Origin: an uncultured bacterium
GTDB taxonomy: Bacteria; Babelota; Babeliae; Babelales; Vermiphilaceae
Reading direction: 5' to 3'
Length of the DNA: 64,000 nucleotides
NCBI GenBank assembly: GCA_963695335.1
Contig: OY968764.1
Location: 736,001-800,000 of the forward strand
Positions 3 to 28,300 of the stretch are shown in pieces (within the stretch, counting starts at the first letter, position 1; each line of letters begins with the position of its first letter). A program made the translations under genes and the position numbers. The notes under the pieces are model-generated. The model saw nothing but the letters and a program-made list of their open reading frames with translations. It was not told where the DNA came from and made no database searches.

Positions 3-1337
3 ACACTTGTTGCCATTCGCAAAAAATCACCGTTGTGTGTGGGGGTTGGCGATGGAGAGATGTTTATAGCTTCCGATGTGATTGCATTTGCAGGTAAAAC
101 GGATAATGTTTTCTTCTTGCCCGATGAAAGCTTTGCGTTTGTTGATAAACATGGCATTAAAGCATATAATTTTGCTGGTCAAGAAATTCCTGTCACCATA
201 GAAAAAACAAATGTCTCTTTTGATAACATTGATAAAGGTGGTCATGAACATTTTATGCTCAAAGAGATTTATGAACAAAAAAATGCGATTGCAAAAACTG
301 TTGCAGGGTTGCGATCTTTAGGTTCCTCTTTATGGGATCAACTTGGCACAACCGCCACAAAAATAGAAAATCTTAAAGGCATATCATTATTAGCATGCGG
401 AACATCATGGCATGCAGCGCGCATAGCGCAATTTTTTTTTGAATCAATCAGTAACATTCCTGTTTCTGTTCACCTTGCCTCCGAGTTTAGGCACCAGGTG
501 TTTTTCCCTGAGCAAGATACGTTGTATATTTTTATTTCACAGTCTGGTGAAACCGCCGATGTTCTTGAAGCATTACGATTAATTAATGAATATGATCTAT
601 TAACTGTTGCTCTGACGAATGTTGCAACAAGTACCGTTGTGCGAGAAGCAAAAGGGTATTTGCAAACGCATGCAGGGCCAGAGATTGCAGTTGCATCTAC
701 CAAAGCATTTTCTACGCAGCTTGCAGCACTGTATTGGTTGGCGCATCGCATTGCGCTTGAAAAGAAGGTGATTGAAGTTGCAACATTGTCTCAGGCTGAG
801 CAAGATTTATTGCATGCAGCAGATTTGATGGAAAAAAATCTAGAAAAATATCGAGATGTGATTGATACCACATATGCTCCTTTGTATGCGCAGCATAATA
901 AAGCGATGTTTTTGGGCAGATATATGAGTTATCCACTTGCAATGGAAAGTGCATTAAAAATAAAAGAAGTGGCGTATGTATTTGCAGCGAGTTACCCTGC
1001 AGGCGAACTGAAACATGGTTCTCTTGCTCTTGTTGATGACACTGTTCCTGTCTATGTTTTTTCTTATCCAGATCCAACAATTTATCAAAAGTTTGTTTCT
1101 AACGTGCATGAAGTTAAAGCACGTGGTGGGCATGTGATTGCATTTGCGTATGAAGGGCAGCATGAGTTGTGTGAATTGGCCGAAACGGCATTTGTTATTT
1201 CTGGTGAATTTCCACCATTGCTTGGTGTATTGGTAACACTCGGCGTGATGCAATATTTTGTGTACGCGGTCGCTCGCGAGCGTGGATGCCCGATCGATAA
1301 ACCGCGTAATTTAGCAAAATCCGTGACGGTTGAATAG
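3..1337 (+). CDS. glmS: Glutamine--fructose-6-phosphate aminotransferase (5' truncated by window edge)
   Basis: HFMLKEIYEQ, CGTSWHA, SQSGETAD, GPEIAVASTKAF, GELKHG and C-terminal DKPRNLAKSVTVE motifs. Confidence 0.98.
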   Translation, partial: TLVAIRKKSPLCVGVGDGEMFIASDVIAFAGKTDNVFFLPDESFAFVDKHGIKAYNFAGQEIPVTIEKTNVSFDNIDKGGHEHFMLKEIYEQKNAIAKTVAGLRSLGSSLWDQLGTTATKIENLKGISLLACGTSWHAARIAQFFFESISNIPVSVHLASEFRHQVFFPEQDTLYIFISQSGETADVLEALRLINEYDLLTVALTNVATSTVVREAKGYLQTHAGPEIAVASTKAFSTQLAALYWLAHRIALEKKVIEVATLSQAEQDLLHAADLMEKNLEKYRDVIDTTYAPLYAQHNKAMFLGRYMSYPLAMESALKIKEVAYVFAASYPAGELKHGSLALVDDTVPVYVFSYPDPTIYQKFVSNVHEVKARGGHVIAFAYEGQHELCELAETAFVISGEFPPLLGVLVTLGVMQYFVYAVARERGCPIDKPRNLAKSVTVE

Positions 1338-1340
1338 AAA

Positions 1341-1697
1341 TTACTCTTTATATGTGAGTTGTATATTGTACTTTTCTCTAAGAGATTTCTCCAGTGAGTC
1401 TAGTTTATTGTTTCGGATTCCATTATTCTGAATCTCTTTGCAAAGAGATAAATAATTTTGCATAATAATAGCACGTAACAATTCATTATTTTCTTTGAGT
1501 AAATTGTTATTTTGTTCGTTTTGTTGGATGATTTTGTGGAGTAATTCATTGTTGTTATACATTGGTGTGTTTGTGTAAAAAGATCTTATTCTTTTAATTT
1601 GTTTTATTGAAGATGCTTTGGTTAACATAGCAAGTGAGTTGTTGGTAATGGTGAGTGCGCATGCAGTTGTAACTAAAAGTGCTGTTGACTTTTTCAC
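1341..1697 (-). CDS. Small secreted coiled-coil protein, array member 1 (putative mitochondrial presequence)
   Basis: GTG start with AAAGGA RBS; signal peptide MKKSTALLVTTACALTITNNSLA; ENNELLRAIIMQN core shared with neighbours. Confidence 0.8.
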   Translation of the reverse strand: MKKSTALLVTTACALTITNNSLAMLTKASSIKQIKRIRSFYTNTPMYNNNELLHKIIQQNEQNNNLLKENNELLRAIIMQNYLSLCKEIQNNGIRNNKLDSLEKSLREKYNIQLTYKE

Positions 1698-1737
1698 AGA
1701 ATATCCTTTTGTTTAATTGTTTTTTGTTTGGCATAGT

Positions 1738-1764
1738 CTAGCAAAATCAGTTACGGTTGAATAG
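1738..1764 (+). repeat. Second copy of glmS 3' end (LAKSVTVE*)
   Basis: CTAGCAAAATCAGTTACGGTTGAATAG versus glmS 1311-1337 TTAGCAAAATCCGTGACGGTTGAATAG. Confidence 0.92.
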
Positions 1765-1779
1765 AAAATTATTTTTTTA

Positions 1780-2097
1780 ACGTGGGTTCGACTTAAGTAA
1801 AATATTATACGTTTTAATGAATTATTCCTCCGCGCTCGCCCTGAACTTGTTGAAGGGTATCTTTGAGCGCACTTCTAATAACAATAGAAAAACAACAAAG
1901 TTTCTATTCTTTAGTGATGATTAAAAAAGAAAAATATTTTTTATTAAAAAAAGAAACCGCGCTCAAAGATATCCTTTTACCCCAATTTCCATTTCATTCC
2001 AATCGGGGACCCCGTCGGAAGGAACTGAAGATGGGGAGTTGCTGACGAGCGCGTAAGATCAAATAATTTTTTAACTTTTCTTAGATTGAACTCACGT
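1780..2097 (-). mobile_element. IS982-derived MITE (318 bp, no transposase)
   Basis: Ends match the 18-bp IR of the IS982 at 37373 (15/18 and 17/18); flanked by 8-bp direct repeat TTTTTTTA (1772-1779, 2098-2105). Confidence 0.85.
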
Positions 2098-2102
2098 TTT
2101 TT

Positions 2103-2483
2103 TTATGACAATAAGGCGTTTTTATATTGCTGTAATTCTAGCAGCCTTTGCGCAAGAGCCGTCATTTCATGCTCTTCTAAGGCATATTCCATTTGCGTTC
2201 TTGGTTTGTTAGACCATTTTTCAATTTGATCAAGAACTTTATTTTGTTCAGTTATGCATCCCATGAGTAGCGTATTCTGTTTTTCTAAGATACTGTTTTT
2301 TGCTTTGATTGTATGACGATCCATGACTACTTGTACTCGTTGCATTGCTGCCAGTTCTTTGTTGTGCGTAGAAAATGAACGTATTTTTTTTGGACATAAA
2401 GCTTGTTTGATGAGCATTCCGGATGCATTGTTGATTGTTAATGCGCATGCAGTGCTGAGTAAAAGTGTGTTTATTTTTTTCAT
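2103..2483 (-). CDS. Small secreted coiled-coil protein, array member 2 (putative mitochondrial presequence)
   Basis: Signal peptide MKKINTLLLSTACALTINNASG followed by MLIKQALCPKKIRSFST. Confidence 0.8.
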   Translation of the reverse strand: MKKINTLLLSTACALTINNASGMLIKQALCPKKIRSFSTHNKELAAMQRVQVVMDRHTIKAKNSILEKQNTLLMGCITEQNKVLDQIEKWSNKPRTQMEYALEEHEMTALAQRLLELQQYKNALLS

Positions 2484-2525
2484 GAAATGTCTTTCTCTTT
2501 TTATTGTTTTTTTGTTTGGCGTAGC

Positions 2526-2552
2526 TTAGCAAAATCAGTCACGGTTGAATAG
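2526..2552 (+). repeat. Third copy of glmS 3' end (LAKSVTVE*)
   Basis: TTAGCAAAATCAGTCACGGTTGAATAG; differs from glmS only at third codon positions. Confidence 0.92.
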
Positions 2553-2556
2553 GAAT

Positions 2557-2943
2557 TTATTCCTTGGTATTAATTTTGAGGTTATATTGTTTTTCGAGTT
2601 TTTGATGCAAAGTGTTCAATGTTACATAATGATTAGCAGTTGGCATTTTAGACAAGCAATTGTGCAGGATCGAAAAGTATAGAACATTTTGTTGAAGTAG
2701 AGCGCGTAGCAATGCATTATTCTCTTTATTTTGTTCAATAATTTCGCGTAATAAATCCCTGTTATCTTTTGTTGAAATGTTAAGATCACTCTTTTGAAAT
2801 ATAAGGGGATGATCATGAGAGCTTGTTTTTGTACAGAAAGATCTTAGTTTTTTTATGTGGAAAGATTTTGTGGTTAACATACCACATGAGTTGCTGGTGA
2901 TAGCAAGTGTGCATGTCAGCAATAATTCTTTATTTATCTTCAT
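2557..2943 (-). CDS. Small secreted coiled-coil protein, array member 3
   Basis: Leader LLLTCTLAITSNSCG-M; ENNALLRALLQQN core; C-terminus similar to member 1. Confidence 0.8.
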   Translation of the reverse strand: MKINKELLLTCTLAITSNSCGMLTTKSFHIKKLRSFCTKTSSHDHPLIFQKSDLNISTKDNRDLLREIIEQNKENNALLRALLQQNVLYFSILHNCLSKMPTANHYVTLNTLHQKLEKQYNLKINTKE

Positions 2944-3308
2944 CTGAGATACTCCAAAGAAAGATCGTTGAGTCTTTCGGCCATATACGTTTCTTTTATT
3001 TTTGATGCGATTTTATATTTGTTTTCAAGTTTGTCTTTTTCAGAACATGAATAAGCAATTGCTCTTGGAGAACAAAGTTCAGTATGAAGATTTTGGTGTA
3101 GGTGGTTTAAGTAATTTTGTTGTATTATAACTCTATTTTGGCGTTTAATGTCACGTAATAATTTGTTATTTTCTTGCAATTCAGCTACAACGTCAAAAGA
3201 GACTGAATCATAATCAATTACATTTTGATCAGTCTCTTTTTTCATGGTAAATGAGTTGCTGGTAATGGTAAGTGCGCAGGTGAGTAAAAGTGCTGTTGTT
3301 TTTTTCAT
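2940..3308 (-). CDS. Small secreted coiled-coil protein, array member 4
   Basis: Leader LLLTCALTITSNSFT-M; QENNKLLRDIKRQN core; ATGA overlap with neighbours. Confidence 0.8.
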   Translation of the reverse strand: MKKTTALLLTCALTITSNSFTMKKETDQNVIDYDSVSFDVVAELQENNKLLRDIKRQNRVIIQQNYLNHLHQNLHTELCSPRAIAYSCSEKDKLENKYKIASKIKETYMAERLNDLSLEYLR

Positions 3309-3679
3309 ATCTTATCGTATTTTGTTTCGTCTTCGTACAGTTTTCTCATCATATCTCGATATGTGAATTCTGCTTTTTTTTCTGATTTTCCGTAAGCGAG
3401 GCTTCTGTGGGTTTCAACAAGGATTATTTCATGCTCAAAGCTTATATGGTTTTGACTTATAATAACTTTATTTTGGCGTTGGATATCTTTTAATAGTTTG
3501 TTGTTTTCTTGTAATAACGCGTTATTTTTTTCTTGTAATTGTCGTTTTTCGATTTTCTCCAGTTTTCTATTTTGCTTGGATATTGTTTCTTCGTGTTCCA
3601 TGCCACATGAGTTGTTGGTAATGGCAAGTGTGCATGTGAGTAAAGCTGCTGTTATTTTCTTCATAATTATCCTTTTCAT
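3305..3679 (-). CDS. Small secreted coiled-coil protein, array member 5 (start may be 3664)
   Basis: Leader ALLTCTLAITNNSCG-ME; QENNKLLKDIQRQN core. Confidence 0.8.
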   Translation of the reverse strand: MKRIIMKKITAALLTCTLAITNNSCGMEHEETISKQNRKLEKIEKRQLQEKNNALLQENNKLLKDIQRQNKVIISQNHISFEHEIILVETHRSLAYGKSEKKAEFTYRDMMRKLYEDETKYDKI

Positions 3680-4077
3680 TCTGATAACAAAATAGATGGT
3701 GTGTGTGTTATTTGATCAATCATCAATTGTGCTTCTGAATAATTGAGAAAATCTCTATTAAGAAGTTCATTGCCGTTGATGACATTAGTAGCATGATTTT
3801 GTTGTGCTTGTAACCTATTTATACTGTTTTGAATACGCAATTTTTCCAATTCAAGGTCACAAATTATCGCATCATTTCTATCATTAAGATCAGCCAATAA
3901 TTTTTTCTGTTCATGTTTTGTTGCTTTTTTAGAGTTGAATATATTTTTGGTGGGCAAGTGATAAGGTTTTATGTTTATTTGCTTTGTTGTGGATAACATT
4001 GTTTTGGGTAACATGCTTAATGAGTTGCCAGGAATAAACAGTGCACTTGTAAGTAAAACTATTATTATTGTTTTCAT
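3676..4077 (-). CDS. Small secreted protein, array member 6
   Basis: Leader MKTIIIVLLTSALFIPGNSLS-ML; basic, acid-free mature N-terminus. Confidence 0.75.
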   Translation of the reverse strand: MKTIIIVLLTSALFIPGNSLSMLPKTMLSTTKQINIKPYHLPTKNIFNSKKATKHEQKKLLADLNDRNDAIICDLELEKLRIQNSINRLQAQQNHATNVINGNELLNRDFLNYSEAQLMIDQITHTPSILLSE

Positions 4078-4523
4078 ATAATAGAGTCTTCTGTTTTACT
4101 GCTTTTTTTTGTTTGAGAGGTTTTTGGCTTTGTTTGACTTGTCATTGGAATATGAAGCGTTTCATCATCCAATTGTTTATTGTGTGATTTGTATATTTGT
4201 TCGAAGGTTACTAGAGCATCTTTAGCGTGTTGGTCTTTAGATTTTCTAGGGTCATTTTTCATGCTATCTTGATATTCGATATTTGCTTTGTTTTGCATGA
4301 GCATGGTATGCAATAAGACATTAGTTTTATTTACTGCTTTAAGGTTTTGTTCTAACAACTCATCTGTTGGATTATTGTTGCTTGATTTTCTACTGATGGT
4401 ACTGCTCGATTCTGATGTATTATTTGTGGTGAGATTAAGACATTCTTCTATATCCATTTCCATGCCTTGGATATGGTTGAAGATGAATAGAGTGGTAAGT
4501 AAAAAGAGCGTTGTTTTTTTCAT
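4074..4523 (-). CDS. Small secreted protein, array member 7
   Basis: Leader MKKTTLFLLTTLFIFNHIQG-ME; KTNVLLHTMLMQN variant of the core. Confidence 0.75.
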   Translation of the reverse strand: MKKTTLFLLTTLFIFNHIQGMEMDIEECLNLTTNNTSESSSTISRKSSNNNPTDELLEQNLKAVNKTNVLLHTMLMQNKANIEYQDSMKNDPRKSKDQHAKDALVTFEQIYKSHNKQLDDETLHIPMTSQTKPKTSQTKKSSKTEDSII

Positions 4524-4576
4524 TACCAGACCTTTTTTTATTTTTTTATCAATCATTACATGAAATTATATTTTGT

Positions 4577-4667
4577 TCAAATACTGTATTTTGACCAAAA
4601 TTAAACTGAATTTATATTGAATTTTAACCAAAAATATGTCATATTTATATTGAATTTCAACCAAAAA
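4577..4667 (+). repeat. Three 33-bp-period direct repeats upstream of the AAA ATPase
   Basis: ATTTATATTGAATTT(T/C)AACCAAAAA at 4610 and 4643; degenerate copy at about 4577. Confidence 0.75.
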
Positions 4668-4669
4668 AC

Positions 4670-6031
4670 ATGAGGATGTATGGAATGAAACGTATTATTG
4701 ATTACTATTTACATAGCTGGAAATACGATCTCCTTCGTAAGCCGTTATTGTTGCGCGGCGCCCGTCAGGTTGGCAAGACGCATGCAGCACGCATTTTGGG
4801 TAAAACATTTCCTGATTTTTTTGAAATTAACTTAGAAAGTCAACCAGCAGCGCATATTATTTTTGAAAAAGATCTGCAACCAGATAGGATCATCAGAGAG
4901 TTATCAGCATTTATGCAAAAACCAATTGTTCCTGGTAAAACATTATTATTTATTGATGAAATTCAAGCTGTTCCGCGGGCCATTTTGGCGCTGCGGTATT
5001 TTTATGAGCAAATGCCAGAATTGCATGTTATTGCCGCAGGATCGTTACTTGATTTTGCTATTGAAGAAGTTGGTATTCCTGTAGGGCGTGTTGAAAGTTT
5101 GTATATGCACCCAGTTTCATTTATTGAATTTTTATGTGCAACATCATCAGATATTTTGGTAGGAGCTTTATTTAAACATGTGAACACCAATCCAATCAGT
5201 GATATTGTACATCAACAACTGTTACAAGTTCTTGGTGAATATCTTGCCATTGGAGGGATGCCAGAAGCGGTGAAATGTTGGCAAGAAACAAAAGATGTAT
5301 TGAAATGTCCAAAAATTCATAAATCTATTCTATCTACCTATCGTCAAGATTTTGGCAAGTATACAAGAAAGCTGCAGGTAAAATATGTTGAACTTATTTT
5401 TCAATATATTCCGATGCAGCTTGGTCAAAAATTTAAATATACGGTTATAGAAGGTGAGTTTAGAAAACGTGAGCTTGCGCCAGCATTAGATCTTTTAGTA
5501 ACTGCAGGTGTTGCACAAAAAGTATATCATTCTGCTGGACAAGGAATTCCATTAGATGCGCAAGTTGATCCTCTTGATTATAAAGTTATTTTTCTTGATG
5601 TAGCACTTTCGCAACAAATGCTTGGATTGCAAACGTCTGGTTGGTACATAGACTCTTTAACTGAATTTGTGAATAAAGGGTCGTTGATTGAATCTTTTGT
5701 TGGGCAGGAAATATTGACCTATATGGACCCTTCAAGTTATCCAGCGCTGTATTACTGGCATAAGGAAACACGGGGCAGCAACGCTGAGATTGATTATTTA
5801 GTTCAACAAGAGGGGTATGTTGTACCGATCGAAGTAAAAAGTGGCGAAGGTCGTACATTAAAAAGTATGCAAACATTTCTTGAGTCGCATACCAAATCTT
5901 CATATGGCATTCGATTTTCCATACAAAATTATTCTGAATATAATAATGTGCGTTCTTATCCATTGTATGCAGTGTTTCAATTGGGTATGTGGGATAATGA
6001 ATTGCGTAAAGCGATTGAATTCCTTGTATAA
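4670..6031 (+). CDS. AAA_14/DUF4143-type ATP-binding protein
   Basis: GARQVGKT Walker A, LLFIDEIQ Walker B, GGMPE, and EIDY...PIEVKSG PD-(D/E)xK-like tail. Confidence 0.9.
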   Translation: MRMYGMKRIIDYYLHSWKYDLLRKPLLLRGARQVGKTHAARILGKTFPDFFEINLESQPAAHIIFEKDLQPDRIIRELSAFMQKPIVPGKTLLFIDEIQAVPRAILALRYFYEQMPELHVIAAGSLLDFAIEEVGIPVGRVESLYMHPVSFIEFLCATSSDILVGALFKHVNTNPISDIVHQQLLQVLGEYLAIGGMPEAVKCWQETKDVLKCPKIHKSILSTYRQDFGKYTRKLQVKYVELIFQYIPMQLGQKFKYTVIEGEFRKRELAPALDLLVTAGVAQKVYHSAGQGIPLDAQVDPLDYKVIFLDVALSQQMLGLQTSGWYIDSLTEFVNKGSLIESFVGQEILTYMDPSSYPALYYWHKETRGSNAEIDYLVQQEGYVVPIEVKSGEGRTLKSMQTFLESHTKSSYGIRFSIQNYSEYNNVRSYPLYAVFQLGMWDNELRKAIEFLV

Positions 6032-6080
6032 AATCAAATTTTTAAGATTCTTGAAAATAGGTGTTTTTTCTAATATCATG

Positions 6081-6113
6081 AGCTAAAGGTAACGCTACAT
6101 GTAACCTTTAGCT
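6081..6113. promoter_or_regulatory. Inverted-repeat operator upstream of the AbiE pair
   Basis: AGCTAAAGGT-N13-ACCTTTAGCT, ending 16 bp before the antitoxin ATG. Confidence 0.6.
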
Positions 6114-6129
6114 TACAATTGGAGAAAAA

Positions 6130-6717
6130 ATGGAAAAAAACGTTCTTTTGCAAATTTTCAAATCAAAATCGACTGTATTGTCTTTTAAAGAAATTTTGAT
6201 GGCAGCTGGCCCAATATCATCAGATCTTTTAAAGAGGCGTCTTCATTATTATGTGCAAAATGGAGAACTGTATGCAATTCGTAAAGGTTTTTATGCAAGG
6301 GATAAAAACTATGATCGGCGTGAATTTGCAACTAAATTATTTACTCCATCATATATTAGTTTTGAAACGGTTCTTGCTGAATCGGGTATAATTTTTCAAT
6401 ATTATTCTACTATTTTTGTGGCTACGTATCAGAGTAAAGATCTTGAGTGTGATGGTCAGGAATATTCATATAAAAAACTAAAAGATACCATTCTTGTTAA
6501 CACAACGGGTATTGAAAACAAGGGAGCTTATTTTATTGCTTCTCCTGAAAGAGCGTTTTTGGATGTGTTGTATCTGAATAAGAATTATTATTTTGATAAT
6601 TTGTCTGTGCTTAATTTTGATAAAATATTATCGATACTCCCTATTTATCATAATAAACGAATGGAAGAAGCTGTTTACGCACAATTGAAAGCTTTTAGAG
6701 AAGAGGAGTTGTCATGA
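6130..6717 (+). CDS. AbiEi-like type IV antitoxin / transcriptional regulator
   Basis: GELYAIRKGFY wHTH, PSYISFETVL and ASPERAFLD motifs; coupled to downstream NTase. Confidence 0.8.
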   Translation: MEKNVLLQIFKSKSTVLSFKEILMAAGPISSDLLKRRLHYYVQNGELYAIRKGFYARDKNYDRREFATKLFTPSYISFETVLAESGIIFQYYSTIFVATYQSKDLECDGQEYSYKKLKDTILVNTTGIENKGAYFIASPERAFLDVLYLNKNYYFDNLSVLNFDKILSILPIYHNKRMEEAVYAQLKAFREEELS

Positions 6718-7406
6718 CATTAGAAATAACAGCTCATAAAAATACCTTGCTGCATATTTTAAAAGATATTTATAGTGATGCAACGATGGCGCCGATCTTA
6801 GGTTTTAAGGGCGGAACTGCAGCATATCTCTTTTATGATTTACCTCGATTTTCAGTTGATTTAGATTTTGATATTTTGGATTCTCATCAAGAGGAATATG
6901 TCTTTGAGCAAATACAGAAAATTCTTGAACAATATGGCATAGTAAAAAAAGCACAGAAAAAAAGATTTAGTTTTTTCTTTTTACTTTCTTACGAAAATAA
7001 ACTTCACAATGCATATAACATTAAAGTTGAAATTAACCGTAGAAGTTTTGGATCAGAATATGAAATAAAATCATATCTTGGAATTCCTATGAAAGTTATG
7101 GTGAAACAAGATATGGCGGCACATAAATTAGTTGCTATGTTTGAACGTCTTGGTACAACTAACCGTGATATTTTTGATGTATGGTTTTTTTTGAAAAATA
7201 ATTGGCCAATTAATGAAAAAATTATTGAGTTACGAACAAACATGAGTATGAAGGAGTTTTTAAAGAAATGTATTATTGAGTTGGAAAAGATGAGTGATCG
7301 TGGCATTTTATCAGGATTGGGTGAATTGCTCGATGCGCAGCAAAAAGCGTGGGTTAAAAAACATTTGCGTGTGGAAACCATTTTTTTATTGAAGATGAAA
7401 TTGTAA
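6714..7406 (+). CDS. AbiEii-like nucleotidyltransferase toxin
   Basis: FKGGTA...LPRFSVDLDF, AHKLVA and RDIFD motifs. Confidence 0.88.
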   Translation: MTLEITAHKNTLLHILKDIYSDATMAPILGFKGGTAAYLFYDLPRFSVDLDFDILDSHQEEYVFEQIQKILEQYGIVKKAQKKRFSFFFLLSYENKLHNAYNIKVEINRRSFGSEYEIKSYLGIPMKVMVKQDMAAHKLVAMFERLGTTNRDIFDVWFFLKNNWPINEKIIELRTNMSMKEFLKKCIIELEKMSDRGILSGLGELLDAQQKAWVKKHLRVETIFLLKMKL

Positions 7407-7407
7407 G

Positions 7408-7446
7408 AAAAAGGCCAAAGTATCAGTTTATGACATTTTGGCCTTT
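7408..7446. terminator. Bidirectional terminator-like hairpin
   Basis: AAAAGGCCAAA...TTTGGCCTTTT between convergent genes. Confidence 0.6.
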
Positions 7447-7448
7447 TA

Positions 7449-7784
7449 TTATTCTTTATTCATATCACAATGTCCAAAATCTCTGTCTTTAGTTTTACCA
7501 GGCATTGCAGCGCGCTCGTCTGTTAAGTCTATGGTAACTCCAGAGAGAGATTCAAGTTTGCGTTCTAAGAATGCGTTTTCTTCTTTTAAACGTTTGTTCT
7601 CTTGCATAGTTTTGTGTAGCAATTTAGCTTGAGGAAATTCTGGAGGAAGTATTGAGTCGTAGCGTAATCGTTTTTGATTGTTTTTTTTGATGAGCTTTAG
7701 CGCAGATTTTTTTGTTGCAAGCATGCTGAATGCGGTTGTGCTGATTAAAGAGTTAAGAGCGCACAGAATTATTATTTTTTTCAT
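7449..7784 (-). CDS. Small secreted protein with basic post-signal segment and short coiled coil
   Basis: MKKIIILCALNSLISTTAFS-MLATKKSALKLIKK. Confidence 0.7.
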   Translation of the reverse strand: MKKIIILCALNSLISTTAFSMLATKKSALKLIKKNNQKRLRYDSILPPEFPQAKLLHKTMQENKRLKEENAFLERKLESLSGVTIDLTDERAAMPGKTKDRDFGHCDMNKE

Positions 7785-7811: not shown

Positions 7812-9299
7812 TTACAACTTTACTTCTTCAATATCTAGTATATCACCACTAATATAATTTTGTTTAAGATATGCAAGCGCTTCTGCGCGTGTTGTTACTA
7901 ATTTGGGAGTGTATGTTTGTGCGGTGTGTAACATGCTGATGAGTGAAATACAATCACGCAGCTGATTATCGTTTTGGAGCATCTCTTTTGCGCGATCATA
8001 GCGTTTACTACTTTTTTTCTTTGTTTCTGGAGCATGTACTTCTTTTTTTTCTTTGGCAAGCGGTATACCTTCTTTAGTAACTTTTATAAAGTTATCTAAT
8101 GTTTCTTCTCGGCCATAATTTTTAGTAAACCATTGTACCTGTTCTGTTGGTGGAGTGGTACGTTCAATCATAAAATCTGGTTCAATGCCAGTGCCCTGGA
8201 TGGTACTGTTATCAGGTAAAAAGTAAAGGCATGTGGTAATTTTGAGCGCGCAGTTGTTACTTATGGGTATAACTTCTTGCACCGATCCTTTTCCAAAAGT
8301 TTTTGTTCCTACTAAAAACACCAAATAATCATTGGTTGTATCAGAATTAATTTTCAAGCAACCAGCTAAAATTTCTCCTGCTGAAGCAGTGTAATTATTG
8401 ATGAGAATAAAAATAGGAAGTGTATTTTTTGCAACGGGATTTCTGCGTGTAGCATAGCGTTCAATTTCTTTGCCATGTTTATCTTTGGTCAGTGCAACAA
8501 GGCTGCCTTTTTTAAGAAAGAGCCCAGCAATATCAATTGCAGCATTGAGTAATCCTCCAGAATTATTGCGTAGGTCAAGAATAAGACCTTTAGCATGTTG
8601 TTCTTGTGATTTTTTAAGTAAAGCTTCAATCTGTTTGGTTGCAGCTTCAGTGAACATACTCAGAGAAATGTAAGCAATGTTGTGACTTTTAATATGAAAA
8701 CTCAGTGAGTGTTGTTCTTTAACAACATCGCGCACAATATCGAATGGAAGTAAATCAGGGCTATTTTCGCGCATTATTTTTACTTTGACCGTGGAATGGC
8801 GCTCCCCTTTGAGTTTGGAAACTATTTTTTCTGTTGAAAGCCCTTCAAGAATTTCACCATCAATTTCTACAATTTTATCCATCGGTTGAATGCCCACTTT
8901 ATCAGCTGGACCATCAGGAACAGTATCAACAATAGTCAGATGTTTATCTTTTGTCTTGCGCATATTATCAATGACAATGCCAACACCAAAAAATTCACCG
9001 GAAGTCATTTCGAGCATTTCATGATACGTCTTAGGGTCTAAAAAATTGGAATGAGCATCTAATGAATTAATAAAGCCATCAATGGCTTTGATCATATTTT
9101 CTTTGGGGTCTGTGATAGCGTAATGTTTTTTATGCGCAATATCCATTGCTTGTGCAAATGTGCGTGACCAATTAAAGATTGTTTCATCAAATGTTTCGTC
9201 TGATACTTGTGCGGATGTTTTGATATTTTTTGTTTCAGCAACTGGTGATGAAAAATAGCATGTTATAGCACAGAATAGTGCAAGTGATTTTTTTTTCAT
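7812..9299 (-). CDS. ctpA: S41 family carboxy-terminal processing protease
   Basis: PDZ (GVGIV), LDLRNNSGG, TASAGE and TFGKGSVQ motifs; start reassigned to MKKKSLA. Confidence 0.93.
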   Translation of the reverse strand: MKKKSLALFCAITCYFSSPVAETKNIKTSAQVSDETFDETIFNWSRTFAQAMDIAHKKHYAITDPKENMIKAIDGFINSLDAHSNFLDPKTYHEMLEMTSGEFFGVGIVIDNMRKTKDKHLTIVDTVPDGPADKVGIQPMDKIVEIDGEILEGLSTEKIVSKLKGERHSTVKVKIMRENSPDLLPFDIVRDVVKEQHSLSFHIKSHNIAYISLSMFTEAATKQIEALLKKSQEQHAKGLILDLRNNSGGLLNAAIDIAGLFLKKGSLVALTKDKHGKEIERYATRRNPVAKNTLPIFILINNYTASAGEILAGCLKINSDTTNDYLVFLVGTKTFGKGSVQEVIPISNNCALKITTCLYFLPDNSTIQGTGIEPDFMIERTTPPTEQVQWFTKNYGREETLDNFIKVTKEGIPLAKEKKEVHAPETKKKSSKRYDRAKEMLQNDNQLRDCISLISMLHTAQTYTPKLVTTRAEALAYLKQNYISGDILDIEEVKL

Positions 9300-9382
9300 T
9301 TTGTCCTCTTTTTGTTGATAGTAAACGTAAATATTGCAACGTAAGTCAATATATGACCAATATGATTGGAAAGGAGGTTTGT

Positions 9383-9664
9383 ATGATACGTATAAAGAAA
9401 ATAGTACTGAAAGTTTTATTGGTATGCGAGATGGCAGGATTTGGGCACATTTATTTTTTTGGTAGTAATGGTATTGCATCATTGCAAGCGCAAAAAAAAG
9501 TTGTTGAAGATTTAAAAAGCTATATTCTGGTCCTTGATACAGAAATTACGCAGTTGGAAAAAGAAATGTATGCGTGGCAACATGATGATTTTTATAAAGA
9601 AAAAGTTGCGCGTGAACAGCTGCAGATGGCACGCAAAGGTGATGAACTGTTTTATATAGGATAA
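9383..9664 (+). CDS. Septum formation initiator (FtsB/DivIC family)
   Basis: AAGGAGGT RBS; TM segment, FFGSNG, coiled coil, EKVAREQLQMARKGD. Confidence 0.82.
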   Translation: MIRIKKIVLKVLLVCEMAGFGHIYFFGSNGIASLQAQKKVVEDLKSYILVLDTEITQLEKEMYAWQHDDFYKEKVAREQLQMARKGDELFYIG

Positions 9665-25437: not shown

Positions 25438-26796
25438 ATGTTGAAACGTCTGGCTACAACGCTTTGGGGAAATTTTGAAAGCAGAGAAGAGCTGCAGAAG
25501 TTTGGAATTCTGGCGCTGATTTTCTGTGGTATTATCGGTATCTACTGGGCATTACGCCCAATGAAAGATAGTATTTTTAATGCTATGATCGGTATGGAAT
25601 GGCAACCTTGGGCGAAAGTGCTTTCATTAGTAGTTATTTTTCCTATAGTAATTCTTTATAGTAAACTTGTTGATACGTTCCCGCGTCACAAGGTTTTTTA
25701 CTTCTTAACAGCTCTTTATGGCGTAATCGCATTGATTATGTTTTTCTGTTTTTCTGATGCTTCACTTGGTCTAGCAAATACCGTTAAAAGTCCGACACGT
25801 ATTCTTGGATGGGCATGGTATGTTTGGGTTGAAAGTTTTGGTTCATTAATGGTTGCTCTTTTCTGGGCTATTGTTACTGACATCACCTCTCCTGAATCAG
25901 CAAAAAGAGGATTCCCTCTTGTAGCATTATTTGGACAAGTAGGTAATATGATTGGACCAAAATTCCTTAATGCAAAAGCATTAGGCTTTTCTAACAGCGC
26001 ACCAGTTGTTGGTATTGTTTCTGGTCTTCTTTTCTTGGTTGGGATTCTATTCTGGGTGTTTATGAAAGTAACTCCAGCATCACAACTTAAAGGTTATCAT
26101 GCAGCGGGTGAATCTGAAGTAGAAGGTGAACCAGGGTTTTTTGAGGGGCTAAAACTTCTCGTTACTCAAGGTTATTTACTTGGCATTTTCCTTATCATTA
26201 CTATTTTTGAAGTAATCGTAACAGTTCTTGATTTCCACTTTAAAATGAGTGTTTCTACAGTATTCACCAGTGAAGCTGAAGTTGGAGCTTACTTAGCATC
26301 TTACGCAACAATGACTGGTGTTGTTTCAACATTATGTGTGTTGTTTGGCATTAATAGCATTCAACGTATTTTGGGTATGAGAGCTTCATTGTTAATGCTT
26401 CCTGTACTAACTATATCAGCAGTTCTTTTGATTTACTTTAATCCACAATCATTGTTGATTGGTTTCTGGATTATGGTGTTCTCAAAAGCAGTAAATTATG
26501 CATTGAACCAGCCAACATTAAAACAGCTTTATATTCCAACTTCAAAAGATACTCGCTATAAAGCACAAGCATGGATTGAAATGTTTGGTGGCCGTTTTTC
26601 AAAAGGCAGCGGATCATATATCAATACATTCCGTGCACCGTTGGTTGCTCAACATGGCGCGCTTGATGGTGTTACAAAGTTCTTGTTTGTTAGCTCAGCA
26701 ATATCGTTTGGTTTAGTTGGCGTTTGGTTGTTAGTTGCGATTTATGTTGCTGCAACATATGACAAAGCAATTAAAGAAAAACGTATTGTGTGTTAA
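25438..26796 (+). CDS. NTT/TLC-family nucleotide (ATP/ADP) transporter
   Basis: LRPMKDS, SLMVALFW, AKRGFP, NYALNQP..LYIP and KAQAWIEMFGGRFSK motifs; multi-TM. Confidence 0.92.
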   Translation: MLKRLATTLWGNFESREELQKFGILALIFCGIIGIYWALRPMKDSIFNAMIGMEWQPWAKVLSLVVIFPIVILYSKLVDTFPRHKVFYFLTALYGVIALIMFFCFSDASLGLANTVKSPTRILGWAWYVWVESFGSLMVALFWAIVTDITSPESAKRGFPLVALFGQVGNMIGPKFLNAKALGFSNSAPVVGIVSGLLFLVGILFWVFMKVTPASQLKGYHAAGESEVEGEPGFFEGLKLLVTQGYLLGIFLIITIFEVIVTVLDFHFKMSVSTVFTSEAEVGAYLASYATMTGVVSTLCVLFGINSIQRILGMRASLLMLPVLTISAVLLIYFNPQSLLIGFWIMVFSKAVNYALNQPTLKQLYIPTSKDTRYKAQAWIEMFGGRFSKGSGSYINTFRAPLVAQHGALDGVTKFLFVSSAISFGLVGVWLLVAIYVAATYDKAIKEKRIVC

Positions 26797-26905
26797 TAAG
26801 GTTCATTATTGAGTAAATAATAAAAAGCGTCTTCTAAAAAAAGTAATTAGAAGACGCTTTTTGGTTCAAAACAACGTAAGATTCAGCAGAAAGGCTTTGG
26901 TTAGG

Positions 26906-28300
26906 ATGGTATCTAAAGTGACACAAATGGTGCGTGGGCTGTTTGATATTGAACCACAAGAGAGAATGAAACTCTTCTTTTTATCACTTCTTTATTTTCT
27001 TGTTGTAGGAGCATATACCGTAACTCGTGATTTGAAGAGCTCGATTTTCTTGGGTACTGTGGGGAAAGAGTATATACCGTGGGTAAAAGTTATTTCTATG
27101 TTGATGCTTGTTCCTGCAATTTTTTTCTATTCTCGTCTTGTTGATAAAATCAAGCGTTATCAGTTGTTGATTTTTTATAGTGTTTTGTTCGGTGTAGCTA
27201 ATTTAATTTTTGCATATTATATAGGGCATCCAACGATTGGAATTTTGAATACTGATGCACAGCCAACTCGTTTATTTGGTTGGTTTTTTTATTTCTTTGT
27301 TGAAGGATATTCGCCATTTGTGGTGAGTGTTTTTTGGGCATTAGCTAACTCTGTTAATAGTCCAGCTGAAGCAAAGAAAAATTATGGTTATATGGTAGCA
27401 GGTTCAAAGTTTGGGGGTATGGTTGCAGCAGCATTAGCCTGGTATATTTTTGGGTTAAGCGCTGAGTTGGTTAAACCATGTCTAACTCATGTTGAAGCGC
27501 ATCAGTTAATTTTAGTTATTTCTTCGCTCTTTTTGTCATTAGTTCCAATGGCTACTGTACTTTTTATAAAAAAAGTACCAGCACATTTGATGCATGGGTA
27601 TGAAGCAGCTTATAAGCTTGAAACGCAGAAAAAAGCTAAGCAAGCCAAGCCAAGTATGTTTGCTGGCCTTGAGATGTTTGTTAAATATCCCTATGTGCTT
27701 GGTATTTTTGGAATGGTATTTTTTTATGAAGTTGTTTCAACGGTACTTGGATATTTACGTTTAGGGGTTGCAGAGGCTGGTGCAGGGTCTATTTCGGATG
27801 TTTCTCGGGTGTTATTTGAAATAGCGTTTAAAGCACACTTTGTTGGATTTGTTATTTCTCTTATTGGTACTCAGGCATTGCTTGCTCGCCTTGGAACGCG
27901 CATCTGTTTGATGTTGATTCCGTTGTCTATGGGAGCGATTCTTTTTTATCTTATTTTTGAAACTTCCCCTGAGTCGCTCCGAAACGCCTTTGTTGTGTTT
28001 ACAGCGTTGAATTATGCATTTCTTGCTCCTGTTAGAGAAAGTTTGTATTTACCAACTATTAAAGAGATTAAGTTCAAGTCTAAGTCGTGGATTGATGCGT
28101 TTGGTAGTAAATTTGCCAAGACAGCTGGTTCTATGTTTAATGTATTTGCTTCAACAATGGGTGAAACATTTATGTTGCCTGTGCATTCTTTCTTTTTTGC
28201 AGTGATAATTGGTTTGTGGTTTGGGGTAACTTTTTTATTAGGACGTCGTTTTGAACAGGTAATCGCTAAAAATGAGGTTATTGGGGCAGAGGAAGAATAA
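26906..28300 (+). CDS. Second NTT/TLC-family nucleotide transporter
   Basis: TRDLKSS, VSVFW, EAKKNYG, NYAF..P.RESLYLP and KSKSWIDAFGSK motifs. Confidence 0.9.
   Translation: MVSKVTQMVRGLFDIEPQERMKLFFLSLLYFLVVGAYTVTRDLKSSIFLGTVGKEYIPWVKVISMLMLVPAIFFYSRLVDKIKRYQLLIFYSVLFGVANLIFAYYIGHPTIGILNTDAQPTRLFGWFFYFFVEGYSPFVVSVFWALANSVNSPAEAKKNYGYMVAGSKFGGMVAAALAWYIFGLSAELVKPCLTHVEAHQLILVISSLFLSLVPMATVLFIKKVPAHLMHGYEAAYKLETQKKAKQAKPSMFAGLEMFVKYPYVLGIFGMVFFYEVVSTVLGYLRLGVAEAGAGSISDVSRVLFEIAFKAHFVGFVISLIGTQALLARLGTRICLMLIPLSMGAILFYLIFETSPESLRNAFVVFTALNYAFLAPVRESLYLPTIKEIKFKSKSWIDAFGSKFAKTAGSMFNVFASTMGETFMLPVHSFFFAVIIGLWFGVTFLLGRRFEQVIAKNEVIGAEEE

Follow-up and report, generated by a model that had tools for sequence, protein, structure and literature searches.

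The paralog array and its distribution

Eight paralogous genes, all on the minus strand, lie in tandem at 1341-4556 and 7449-7784 of the window, the 64,000-nucleotide stretch of DNA that was analysed. The encoded proteins share a signal-like N-terminus, a short tail and a common core, and the tails divide the array into five basic and three acidic members. Five minus-strand reading frames had been pointed out in a first-pass annotation, and re-translation recovered all of them together with the peptides quoted for them. Pairwise identity among the paralogs is only 26-45%. In a homology search the E values of the eight lie between 5.5e-40 and 1.5e-25, no other match in the genome falls below E 0.004, and Pfam gives no match above cut-off for any of the eight.

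Paralog 1 (1341-1697, 118 aa) has a GTG start, a signal peptide at 1629-1697 and the basic tail MLTKASSIKQIKRIRSFYTNTPMYNNN at 1548-1628, with the helical core after it. Paralog 2 (2103-2483, 126 aa) carries its signal peptide at 2418-2483 and its basic tail at 2358-2417. Paralog 3 (2557-2943, 128 aa), with a signal peptide at 2881-2943 and a basic tail containing KKLRSFCT at 2815-2880, overlaps the next gene by 4 bases (ATGA), which suggests translational coupling. That gene, paralog 4 (2940-3308, 122 aa), has the same signal peptide and Met followed by an acidic tail (MKKETDQNVIDYD) with a net charge of -3, where net charges of tails refer to the first 18 mature residues. Paralog 5 (3305-3679, 124 aa) is likewise acidic (MEHEETISKQ, net charge -1), and paralog 6 (3676-4077, 133 aa) has a signal peptide at 4015-4077 and a basic tail of 34 residues at 3913-4014, whose basic residues are all Lys (seven, with no Arg). 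The third acidic tail (MEMDIEECL, net charge -5) belongs to paralog 7 (4074-4556), which measures 160 aa counted from the first ATG and likely has its true start at a later MKKTT. Paralog 8 (7449-7784, 111 aa) stands apart from the others, with a signal peptide at 7725-7784 and the basic tail MLATKKSALKLIKKNNQKRLRY at 7659-7724 (net charge +6).

The array is divided by a plus-strand insertion at 4670-7406 that lies outside the family. It comprises an AAA_14/DUF4143 ATPase (4670-6031), a reading frame at 6130-6717 without Pfam match and, at 6714-7406, a nucleotidyltransferase toxin of the AbiEii type; the Pfam matches in the insertion are PF13635 (2e-25), PF13173 (1.6e-21) and PF08843 (4.8e-19). 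On one side the array is flanked by a plus-strand frame at 3-1337, open at the 5' end of the window, which we take by eye to be the 3' part of glmS. The window also holds a PDZ/S41 peptidase frame at 7812-9482.

Outside its own genome, the family matched at E 8e-5 or better in four of 10 genomes of the same genus, while in 50 genomes of other genera no E value fell below 3.7e-4; of the four best other-genus matches, two (G051 and G042) cover the signal-peptide part only (query residues 1-38 and 1-33). Metagenomes contributed 103 cluster representatives, of which 37 reach E 1e-10 or better. Copy number ranges from 1 to 8. In three species, counting two others of the genus (G002 and G008), the family adjoins a homolog of the frame at 3-1337 and is present in 8, 4 and 2 copies. 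Term searches of the open-access literature on Dependentiae/TM6 signal peptides, secretion and N-terminal motifs returned no mention of the family, of its tail motif or of a rule placing Met at +1.

Signal peptides and the methionine at +1

The signal-like N-termini of the five basic-tailed proteins are 20-23 aa long, with an MKK-type n-region and a hydrophobic core free of charge, and by our own heuristics all five have the features of a Sec/signal peptidase I signal peptide. Residues at -3/-1 are S/A, A/G, S/G, S/S and A/S for the genes at 1341, 2103, 2557, 3676 and 7449. As the earlier reading of this DNA had it, each signal peptide is followed by Met-Leu and 20-34 residues containing neither Asp nor Glu; from Met-Leu, the acid-free lengths are 27, 20, 22, 34 and 22 residues in the same order.

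Placement of Met directly after the signal peptide extends well beyond the array. Signal-like N-termini occur in 699 of the 1376 reading frames of the genome, and in 261 of these 699 the signal ends in [AGSCT]-Met; these genome-wide counts are approximate and include paralogs, signal peptides and genes having been called with crude home-made heuristics rather than SignalP or Prodigal. Met-Glu predominates among the 261, and an Asp or Glu comes next in 145 of them. Met closes the uncharged run, directly before the first charged residue, in 189 of 668 cases, against a background of 3.6%, and the residue before it is small in 178 of those 189. Met at +1 is thus a general habit of the exported proteins of this genome and no hallmark of the paralog family.

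A Shine-Dalgarno-like motif (-20 to -5) precedes 59% of the 261 signal-peptide starts and none of the internal Met codons. Within the family, the signal-peptide region is conserved as protein across 61 homologs (MKK, C, L and NNSFG). Both the motif placement and this conservation indicate that the signal peptide belongs to the translated protein. Sec-type export of the five proteins, which had been proposed for them, is supported by the signal-peptide features, the small -1 residues and the Shine-Dalgarno placement. The proposed cleavage just ahead of Met also gains support, from the small -1 residues genome-wide and from the restriction of Shine-Dalgarno motifs to the upstream start, and most probably signal peptidase cuts there.

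Composition, conservation and predicted fold of the tail

The five basic tails together contain 24 Lys and 6 Arg in 125 residues, so that Lys reaches 19.2% against 7.3% in the proteome, while Arg stands at 4.8% against 3.8%. Across 71 homolog tails Arg makes up 6.7% and Lys 13.6%. At proteome composition the probability of meeting no Asp or Glu across 17 residues is 0.14, and acid-free stretches of at least 15 aa with at least three Lys or Arg open 151 of 677 signal-less N-termini (22%) and 28 of the 261 signal-Met proteins (10.7%). Tail composition alone is no more than chance. The net charge of the tails, +3 to +6, is unusual among the exported proteins of the genome, where 21 of the 261 reach at least +4 over the first 18 mature residues; such charges imply that some property is under selection, and a signal for organelle import would be consistent with that. 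Other unrelated signal-Met proteins, two J-domain proteins among them, expose acid-free tails richer in Arg.

Conservation of the tail, unlike its composition, exceeds chance. Among the aligned homologs the opening Met is invariant (61 of 61) and Leu follows in 56 of 60; the basic columns hold Lys in 47 of 59 and 41 of 60 and Arg or Lys in 40 of 59, and further columns hold Phe, Leu or Tyr (51 of 61), His or Cys (42 of 61) and Thr (39 of 61). The resulting block, KK-I-(R/K)-S-F-(H/C)-T, has an information content similar to that of the helix core across 61 homologs. A profile of the tail run against the 1376 reading frames of the genome matched family members only. The basic or acidic state of a tail is maintained between orthologs: those of paralog 7 in G008 and G002 are likewise acidic, and those of paralog 8 (L014:29-373 and L015:2873-3187) likewise basic.

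For mature paralog 1, AlphaFold2 predicts coil over residues 1-23 (pLDDT 53-60) and helices at 24-69 and 74-87, with a mean pLDDT of 78.5. The long helix, of about 46 residues, is rich in Asn/Leu heptads.

Possible roles of the exported proteins

The genome (1.37 Mb, 36% GC) encodes two ATP/ADP translocases, recognised as TLC matches, and two secretins; two secretins (GspD) and ATP/ADP translocases fit the description of TM6 in PMC4776705. Its superoxide dismutase has a candidate division TM6 bacterium as closest named relative (67% identity). Small genome size, the translocases, the two secretins, a large share of signal peptides and, for this one protein, a nearest named relative in TM6 are all traits of the Dependentiae/TM6 group. 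PMC6561590 gives a signal-bearing share of 44% for Chromulinavorax. PMC4378268 describes secreted signal-peptide proteins of Babela as presumed to act in the amoeba cytoplasm; 79 of its 126 ankyrin proteins carry signals and are presumed there to be secreted into that cytoplasm.

Against this background, we give about an even chance to the reading that the paralogs are small candidate effectors exported by Sec, belonging to a lineage-specific and rapidly diversifying family of a TM6/Dependentiae-like intracellular bacterium and equipped with a putative docking peptide; most likely they are host-directed effector candidates. Translation would begin at the upstream codon led by the Shine-Dalgarno motif, the protein would pass through Sec by means of its signal peptide, and signal peptidase I would cut between the small residue and Met. 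Maturation would leave a disordered tail of 20-34 residues ahead of the helix of about 46 residues and a second, short one. The tails of most members carry a short linear motif particular to the family, M-L-T-K-(T/A)-S ... K-K-I-(R/K)-S-F-(H/C)-T; we infer that it docks onto one specific partner or onto an anionic surface and is not a generic organelle-import signal. The acidic-tail paralogs may have diverged toward other partners. Release past the outer membrane might proceed via the type II secretion machinery or vesicles.

Alternatively, the proteins may stay with the bacterium, in the periplasm, at the inner face of the outer membrane or on the surface, where the helices would oligomerise while the Lys-rich tail attaches to anionic parts of the envelope, either lipid head groups or peptidoglycan. 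A Sec signal by itself reaches the periplasm only, and small helical proteins would suit such a role, as would the adjacent presumed glmS homolog in three species and the PDZ/S41 peptidase frame of the window. The patchy occurrence of the family, in four of 10 genomes of its genus and with no match better than E 3.7e-4 in 50 genomes of other genera, speaks against an envelope function, and variable copy number combined with low identity of the paralogs is what accessory genes facing the host would show, more than components of envelope structure. The tail charge also flips from paralog to paralog. We regard this alternative as unlikely, if still a credible one.

The first-pass annotation had proposed bipartite targeting, in which signal-peptide cleavage exposes the Met-Leu basic tail as a mitochondrial matrix presequence. 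Import would run through TOM/TIM23 of the host, with cutting by MPP (and Icp55) between the Ser and Phe of R-S-F. Several observations favour this proposal. The tails are acid-free, basic and rich in Ser/Thr, they start right at the predicted cleavage site, and few of the exported proteins (21 of 261 at +4 or more) begin their mature part with a basic region; the Arg-richer acid-free tails on unrelated signal-Met proteins and the easily unfolded, small helical cargo point the same way. Three of the five tails contain R-x-F, 13-15 residues from Met, which corresponds to the R-2 form of MPP site with a hydrophobic +1 residue given in PMC12670562, and PMC6561590 describes remodelling of the host mitochondrion by a Dependentiae species.

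The motif on which the proposal had drawn, R-x-(F/Y/L)-(S/A)-(S/T), holds in its strict form for one tail of the five, that of paralog 2 (RSFST); two others are near-misses (RSFYT and RSFCT), and the remaining two, including paralog 6 with no R-x-F at all, lack it. The ortholog of paralog 2 in G008 (L014:1106-1504) reads KKIHSFCA. Across the homologs the strict motif occurs in four of 71 tails, the Arg of the putative processing site is retained in 28 of 59, and Phe is followed by His or Cys (42 of 61) instead of Ser or Ala. Presequences are described in PMC7723863 as 20-60 aa long, poor in acidic residues, Arg-rich and able to form a positively charged amphiphilic alpha-helix. The tails share the acid-free character but not the Arg content, since Lys dominates them and Arg is barely above proteome level, and cleavage within R-S-F would yield a short presequence of 14-16 aa. 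No amphiphilic helix is apparent either: the tail is coil in AlphaFold2, and the maximum hydrophobic moment at 100 degrees, a proxy uncalibrated on real presequences, gives z scores of -0.2 to 0.6 against shuffles for the five tails and a mean of 0.25 over 71 homolog tails, 1% of which exceed 1.64.

Nor do the tails rise by these proxies above ordinary acid-free basic N-termini of the genome, an outcome that the first-pass annotation had named as counting against its proposal: their mean moment of 0.50 equals the 0.50 of 151 acid-free basic control N-termini, which weakens the mitochondrial idea but does not refute it. Acid-free basic N-termini are commoner among signal-less proteins than among signal-Met proteins, three paralogs with the same core carry acidic tails, and residue-level conservation is stronger than a degenerate physicochemical signal would lead one to expect. 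With moment, Arg content, predicted structure and conservation of the putative processing site all failing to support it, the presequence interpretation appears improbable to us. We are equally doubtful of its lineage-wide extension, in which Sec export and signal-peptidase cleavage would create a Met N-terminus bearing a second-step address, the basic minority being read by the host as an organelle-import signal with mitochondria as prime candidate. Under this extension most exported proteins would expose Met-Glu, and the basic minority would include the five paralogs and unrelated J-domain and ankyrin proteins elsewhere in the genome.

The consensus of the classical monopartite nuclear localisation signal is K-(K/R)-x-(K/R), which the K-K-x-(R/K) of the tail resembles, and the tail might accordingly be a nuclear localisation or nucleic-acid-binding peptide. 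Four of the five tails contain the pattern (KRIR, KKIR, KKLR and KRLR) and the basic cluster coincides with the best-conserved basic columns, but with Lys at 7.3% of the proteome such matches must be common, the equally conserved S-F-(H/C)-T and M-L-T-K are left unexplained, and a protein of about 11 kDa can enter the nucleus without any signal; we consider this very unlikely. That the hydrophobic N-terminus is untranslated, or that the invariant Met is a second start for a cytoplasmic isoform, is barely credible: public gene callers began four homologs at that Met (P0035, P0054, P0065 and P0084), but a relative of P0035 (L017) has a full-length frame with signal peptide, and both the Shine-Dalgarno placement and the protein-level conservation described above point to the upstream start.

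The preferred reading, a family of secreted effector candidates with a docking peptide, places the paralogs beside the signal-peptide ORFan and repeat-protein candidates proposed for Dependentiae such as Babela massiliensis and Chromulinavorax destructans. Points in common are a small AT-rich genome with a Sec-type signal on about half of the reading frames, and two secretins, as reported for TM6; the paralog family differs in that it has no Pfam domain and no description in the literature searched. Mitochondrial presequences (MPP R-2/Icp55 R-3) resemble the tails as acid-free, basic, hydroxylated N-terminal stretches with R-x-aromatic in three of five, and differ in the respects given above and in not standing behind a bacterial signal peptide. 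Bacterial proteins known to use host import machinery reach the host through type III or type IV secretion and carry the targeting sequence at the primary N-terminus. Under the mitochondrial interpretation the paralogs would also use host import, whereas it would take Sec export followed by signal-peptidase cleavage to expose their signal, an arrangement that we did not find documented in the literature searched. A second sorting element behind a cleavable signal peptide is known from the signal-plus-transit-peptide leaders of complex plastids and from PEXEL/RxLR motifs. As in those systems, a conserved element would lie at or near the new N-terminus; they are, however, eukaryotic and processed in the endomembrane system of the parasite or alga itself, and their motifs differ, so that no homology is implied.

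The Dependentiae literature consulted here infers host delivery from signal peptides alone, for bacteria that export a very large share of their proteome. The family lends itself to testing: the protein is small, and basic- and acidic-tail paralogs occur naturally next to each other. Should its tails turn out to be import signals, this would be a new way for a bacterium to deliver proteins into an organelle of its host, and the address reading, if true, would give bacteria an equivalent of the bipartite leaders found in complex plastids; otherwise the eight genes make up an ordinary secreted family, specific to its lineage and marked by a conserved linear motif. The genome-wide signature of signal peptide, small residue, Met and usually Glu could be used to delimit the effector repertoire across the group and to sort it into subsets.

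A lineage-specific array of small exported proteins

Eight tandem ORFs, all on the minus strand (1341-1697, 2103-2483, 2557-2943, 2940-3308, 3305-3679, 3676-4077, 4074-4556 and 7449-7784 in the ORF listing), align as one family with 26-45% identity to the first member, and the alignment of the eight paralogs has invariant columns at M1, K2, L15, I17 and a Met at position 24. The predicted mature proteins, taken to begin at the Met directly after the signal peptide, carry a basic tail in five paralogs (those starting at 1341, 2103, 2557, 3676 and 7449) and an acidic one in three (2940, 3305 and 4074). Five consecutive genes (2557-4556) are joined by four-base ATGA overlaps, so translational coupling as a single unit is probable. 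The array is flanked by an ORF that runs off the 5' end of the window (3-1337), a putative glmS, and by a PDZ/S41 peptidase gene (7812-9482). An insertion (4670-7406) interrupts it, in which Pfam identified an AAA_14/DUF4143 ATPase gene and an AbiEii-type toxin gene (6714-7406), and which also contains an ORF (6130-6717) without a Pfam match. A close relative of this last ORF also adjoins the family in G002, another species of the genus.

The genome holding the window is a single contig of 1.37 Mb with 36% GC that encodes two ATP/ADP translocases and two secretins, the latter number being reported for all TM6 genomes in excerpts of PMC4776705. The superoxide dismutase of the window is 67% identical to a protein whose source is named as 'candidate division TM6 bacterium', and crude home-made gene calls assign a signal-like N-terminus to 699 of 1376 ORFs, a share similar to the 44% given for Chromulinavorax in excerpts of PMC6561590. 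On these grounds, the source is accepted to be a Dependentiae-like intracellular bacterium. The translocase (TLC) genes are adjacent (25450-27748 in the window; G000:C1:761450-763748, where G000 is this genome and C1 its contig) and both score above the Pfam cut-off, which fits an energy-parasitic lifestyle. A search of the ESM Atlas with the neighbouring S41 peptidase returned generic bacterial clusters only and was of no help for taxonomy.

Full-length relatives of the family were found in four of ten same-genus genomes, and a homolog of ORF 3-1337 again adjoins the family in two of those species; in the 50 genomes from other genera, matches were no better than E 3.7e-4. The related-loci search gave no matches with a single family protein from the window and, with the ortholog from G008 (a further species of the genus), returned only the record of G008 itself and one signal-peptide-only match. 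Metagenomes supplied 103 cluster representatives, which a parser divided into 67 with basic, 12 with acidic and 4 with intermediate tails and 20 unparsed, several of the last visibly carrying signal-Met-Glu. The basic or acidic state of the tail is kept between orthologs. None of the eight proteins exceeded a Pfam cut-off (YebO came closest, scoring 18.7 bits where 27 are required), a family protein yielded no usable match in the ESM Atlas, and Foldseek with an AlphaFold2 model found nothing in the PDB at E <=0.001. As far as can be told from these searches and those of the literature, the family itself is undescribed; in kind it joins the many signal-peptide-bearing ORFan effector candidates that have been noted in Dependentiae. 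Overall, the array is best explained as a lineage-specific, copy-number-variable (1-8 copies) and fast-diverging family of small Sec-exported proteins.

Two further features were observed among the homologs. Nearly half of the metagenome representatives (48/103) end in Glu, compared with approximately 10% of proteins genome-wide. In addition, some homologs (cluster representatives P0008, P0037 and P0062, and 1631-2080 of locus L016) have a Cys-rich insertion between tail and helix, of the pattern C-P-C-x-P-x-D-C-x-C-G-R-K-K-P or C-x2-C ... C-x-C, which suggests a small metal-binding knuckle.

Conservation and possible roles of the tail

The five peptides quoted in the first-pass annotation are present exactly as given, following signal-like segments of 20-23 residues whose -3 and -1 positions are small; the three acidic-tail paralogs share this signal peptide and the Met. 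In the basic-tail proteins the mature sequence opens with Met-Leu, and the stretches free of Asp and Glu that follow span 27, 20, 22, 34 and 22 residues. Their first 18 mature residues carry a net charge of +3 to +6, as against -1, -3 and -5 in the other three paralogs. At proteome composition, a run of 17 residues without Asp or Glu has a chance of 0.14. Starts that stay acid-free for 15 or more residues and include three or more Lys/Arg occur in 151/677 ORFs without a signal (22%) versus 28/261 proteins with the signal-Met arrangement (10.7%). Among exported proteins, the family tails rank at the high end of charge: a net charge of +4 or more was found in 21/261 signal-Met proteins versus 4.5% of random 18-mers, a modest excess in a count that includes paralogs, four of the 21 being family members. 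Given this modest excess and the higher frequency in ORFs without a signal, acid-free basic tails were rejected as a distinct class of signal-Met proteins.

The basic tail is thus not more than chance by composition, but it is more than chance by conservation. In a 61-member alignment the mature end reads M (61/61), L (56/60), then T, K, T/K and S, followed by a second block of K (47/59), K (41/60), I, R (28/59) or K (12/59) and S (31/59) that ends in F/L/Y (51/61), H/C (42/61) and T (39/61); the information content of the tail is similar to that of the helix core. A profile of the tail matched only family members among the 1376 ORFs of the genome, so the motif is family-specific and not a module common to other proteins; a start of MLTKA or MLVKA was seen in two unrelated proteins. 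Among the exported proteins of this genome, so basic an early mature region is uncommon, and it has therefore probably been selected for something.

In the mechanism that we propose, the signal peptide would be cut before a generic Met to leave a mature protein predicted to consist of a disordered tail and an Asn/Leu-heptad helix. The tail, a conserved short linear motif, would serve for docking to a specific partner or an anionic surface, which most likely belongs to the host, and the acidic-tail paralogs may have acquired different partners. The proteins would leave the periplasm by type II machinery or vesicles, as suggested by the presence of secretins and by the literature. A role of the family in the bacterial envelope is an unlikely alternative, rated only marginally above the presequence reading discussed below.

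The presequence interpretation and other exported proteins

The first-pass annotation had proposed that signal peptide cleavage exposes a mitochondrial presequence, and on this basis an undescribed bipartite targeting system. Several observations favor such a reading: the unusually basic early mature region; Arg-richer acid-free tails on a number of unrelated signal-Met proteins that the genome encodes elsewhere, two of which end in a J-domain and one in ankyrin repeats; and, from excerpts of PMC6561590, the host mitochondrion wrapped around the bacterium in Chromulinavorax. Passages of PMC7723863 describe presequences as segments of 20-60 residues with much Arg and few acidic residues that form a positively charged amphiphilic alpha-helix; MPP cuts two residues after an Arg and Icp55 takes off one more residue. 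In PMC12670562 the processing site is of the R-2 type, and its +1 residue is hydrophobic.

The family tails are Lys-driven (K 24 and R 6 of 125 residues), with Arg at 4.8% versus 3.8% in the proteome. Their maximum hydrophobic moment at 100 degrees is not above that of shuffled sequences (z -0.2 to 0.6 in the five tails; mean z 0.25, with 1% above 1.64, in 71 homolog tails), and their mean moment equals that of 151 control N-termini. AlphaFold2 with the 61-sequence alignment (mean pLDDT 78.5) predicted residues 1-23 as coil (pLDDT 53-60) and helices at 24-69 and 74-87; a two-copy complex prediction for the helical part (residues 20-95) scored 0.07 against a mark of 0.42 and is uninformative on oligomerisation. 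The R-3 processing motif R-x-(F/Y/L)-(S/A)-(S/T) that had been proposed is present in its strict form in one of the five tails and 4/71 homolog tails. The R-S-F of the family has the R-2/hydrophobic +1 form in three of the five; the Arg of the putative site is kept in under half of homologs, His or Cys stands in place of Ser/Ala after the Phe, and a cut at R-S|F would imply a presequence of only 14-16 residues. The amphiphilicity and composition proxies are uncalibrated on real presequences, because a search with the window superoxide dismutase for eukaryotic mitochondrial homologs to serve as a positive control yielded, in all 120 matches listed, close bacterial relatives. Apart from the R-S-F form, these tests go against a presequence, and the proposed targeting system is unsupported by the tests available; we consider a presequence improbable for this family. 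Still less probable is a role of the tail as a nuclear localisation or nucleic-acid-binding peptide, and a docking motif on small Sec-exported proteins remains our preferred interpretation.

A weak period-three signal was observed at 120 degrees (71 homolog tails: mean z 0.81, 28% above 1.64). The tail of ORF 1341-1697 (1548-1628) has a hydrophobic residue at every third position, with a 120-degree z of 3.5 versus shuffles; this is not an alpha-helical period.

In the two J-domain proteins, the signal peptide and Met are followed by an extended acid-free tail of Arg/Lys type, and the J-domain at the C-terminus has the HPD motif. These are L039 (G000:C1:688126-689466), with a DnaJ score of 37.2 bits against a cut-off of 27.8, and L042 (G000:C1:1028625-1029659), at 18.7 bits and below that cut-off. 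Both look like exported Hsp70 co-chaperone mimics and more presequence-like than the array family. A C-terminal Arg-Glu occurs in 15/1376 ORFs versus 3.1 expected, all 15 with a signal-like N-terminus and 8 also with an acid-free basic tail after Met, and may be a sorting or processing motif; examples on G000:C1 are L039, L042, 82294-85182 (L033), 162084-162857, 593164-595482, 1025490-1028489 (L041), 1088508-1089080 and 1290402-1291229. A block of the form SPF-x(2,3)-G-x-Q-K-R-x-Y-(S/H)-T recurs 65-110 residues past the Met in the large signal-Met proteins L033, L038 (593164-595470), L039 and L041 and is possibly a site of processing. The pattern Q[KQ]R.[FY], set post hoc and with two paralogs among its proteins, was found in the first 120 residues of 5/28 basic-tail versus 0/233 other signal-Met proteins.

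The methionine after the signal peptide

The Met that opens the mature family proteins is part of a genome-wide rule, which all eight paralogs follow, as counted by home-made heuristics with paralogs included. In 189/668 ORFs with an N-terminal hydrophobic region, the uncharged run up to the first charged residue ends in Met, versus a background of 3.6%; 143 of these 189 have the pair Met-Glu, and 178 have a small residue directly before the Met, as a signal peptidase I site requires. Under a slightly different rule, [AGSCT]-Met at the signal end, there are 261 cases among 699 ORFs, with Asp/Glu next in 145. Of these 261 genes, 59% have a Shine-Dalgarno-like motif ahead of the signal-peptide start and 0% have one ahead of the internal Met; translation therefore includes the signal peptide, and the Met does not serve as an ordinary second start, which effectively rules out the reading of the invariant Met as an alternative start.

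The signal-small-Met(-Glu) signature also occurs more widely in the order, in loci from other genera and families (L019, L021, L023, L024, L025 and L026). In samples of 20 kb per genome, drawn from 20 related genomes, [small]-Met-[charged] was found in 11/161 signal-like ORFs; this sample is too small, and too heavily weighted towards housekeeping genes, for an estimate of how prevalent the rule is. The rule was not mentioned in the literature searched on Dependentiae signal peptides, secretion and N-terminal motifs, nor in the TM6/Dependentiae papers searched by term. It might derive from fossil ancestral start codons, from a preference of signal peptidase or export, or from a host requirement for the new N-terminus. 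This rule of a signal peptide, a small residue and Met(-Glu) in the clade is the more interesting by-product of the analysis and is worth a study of its own.
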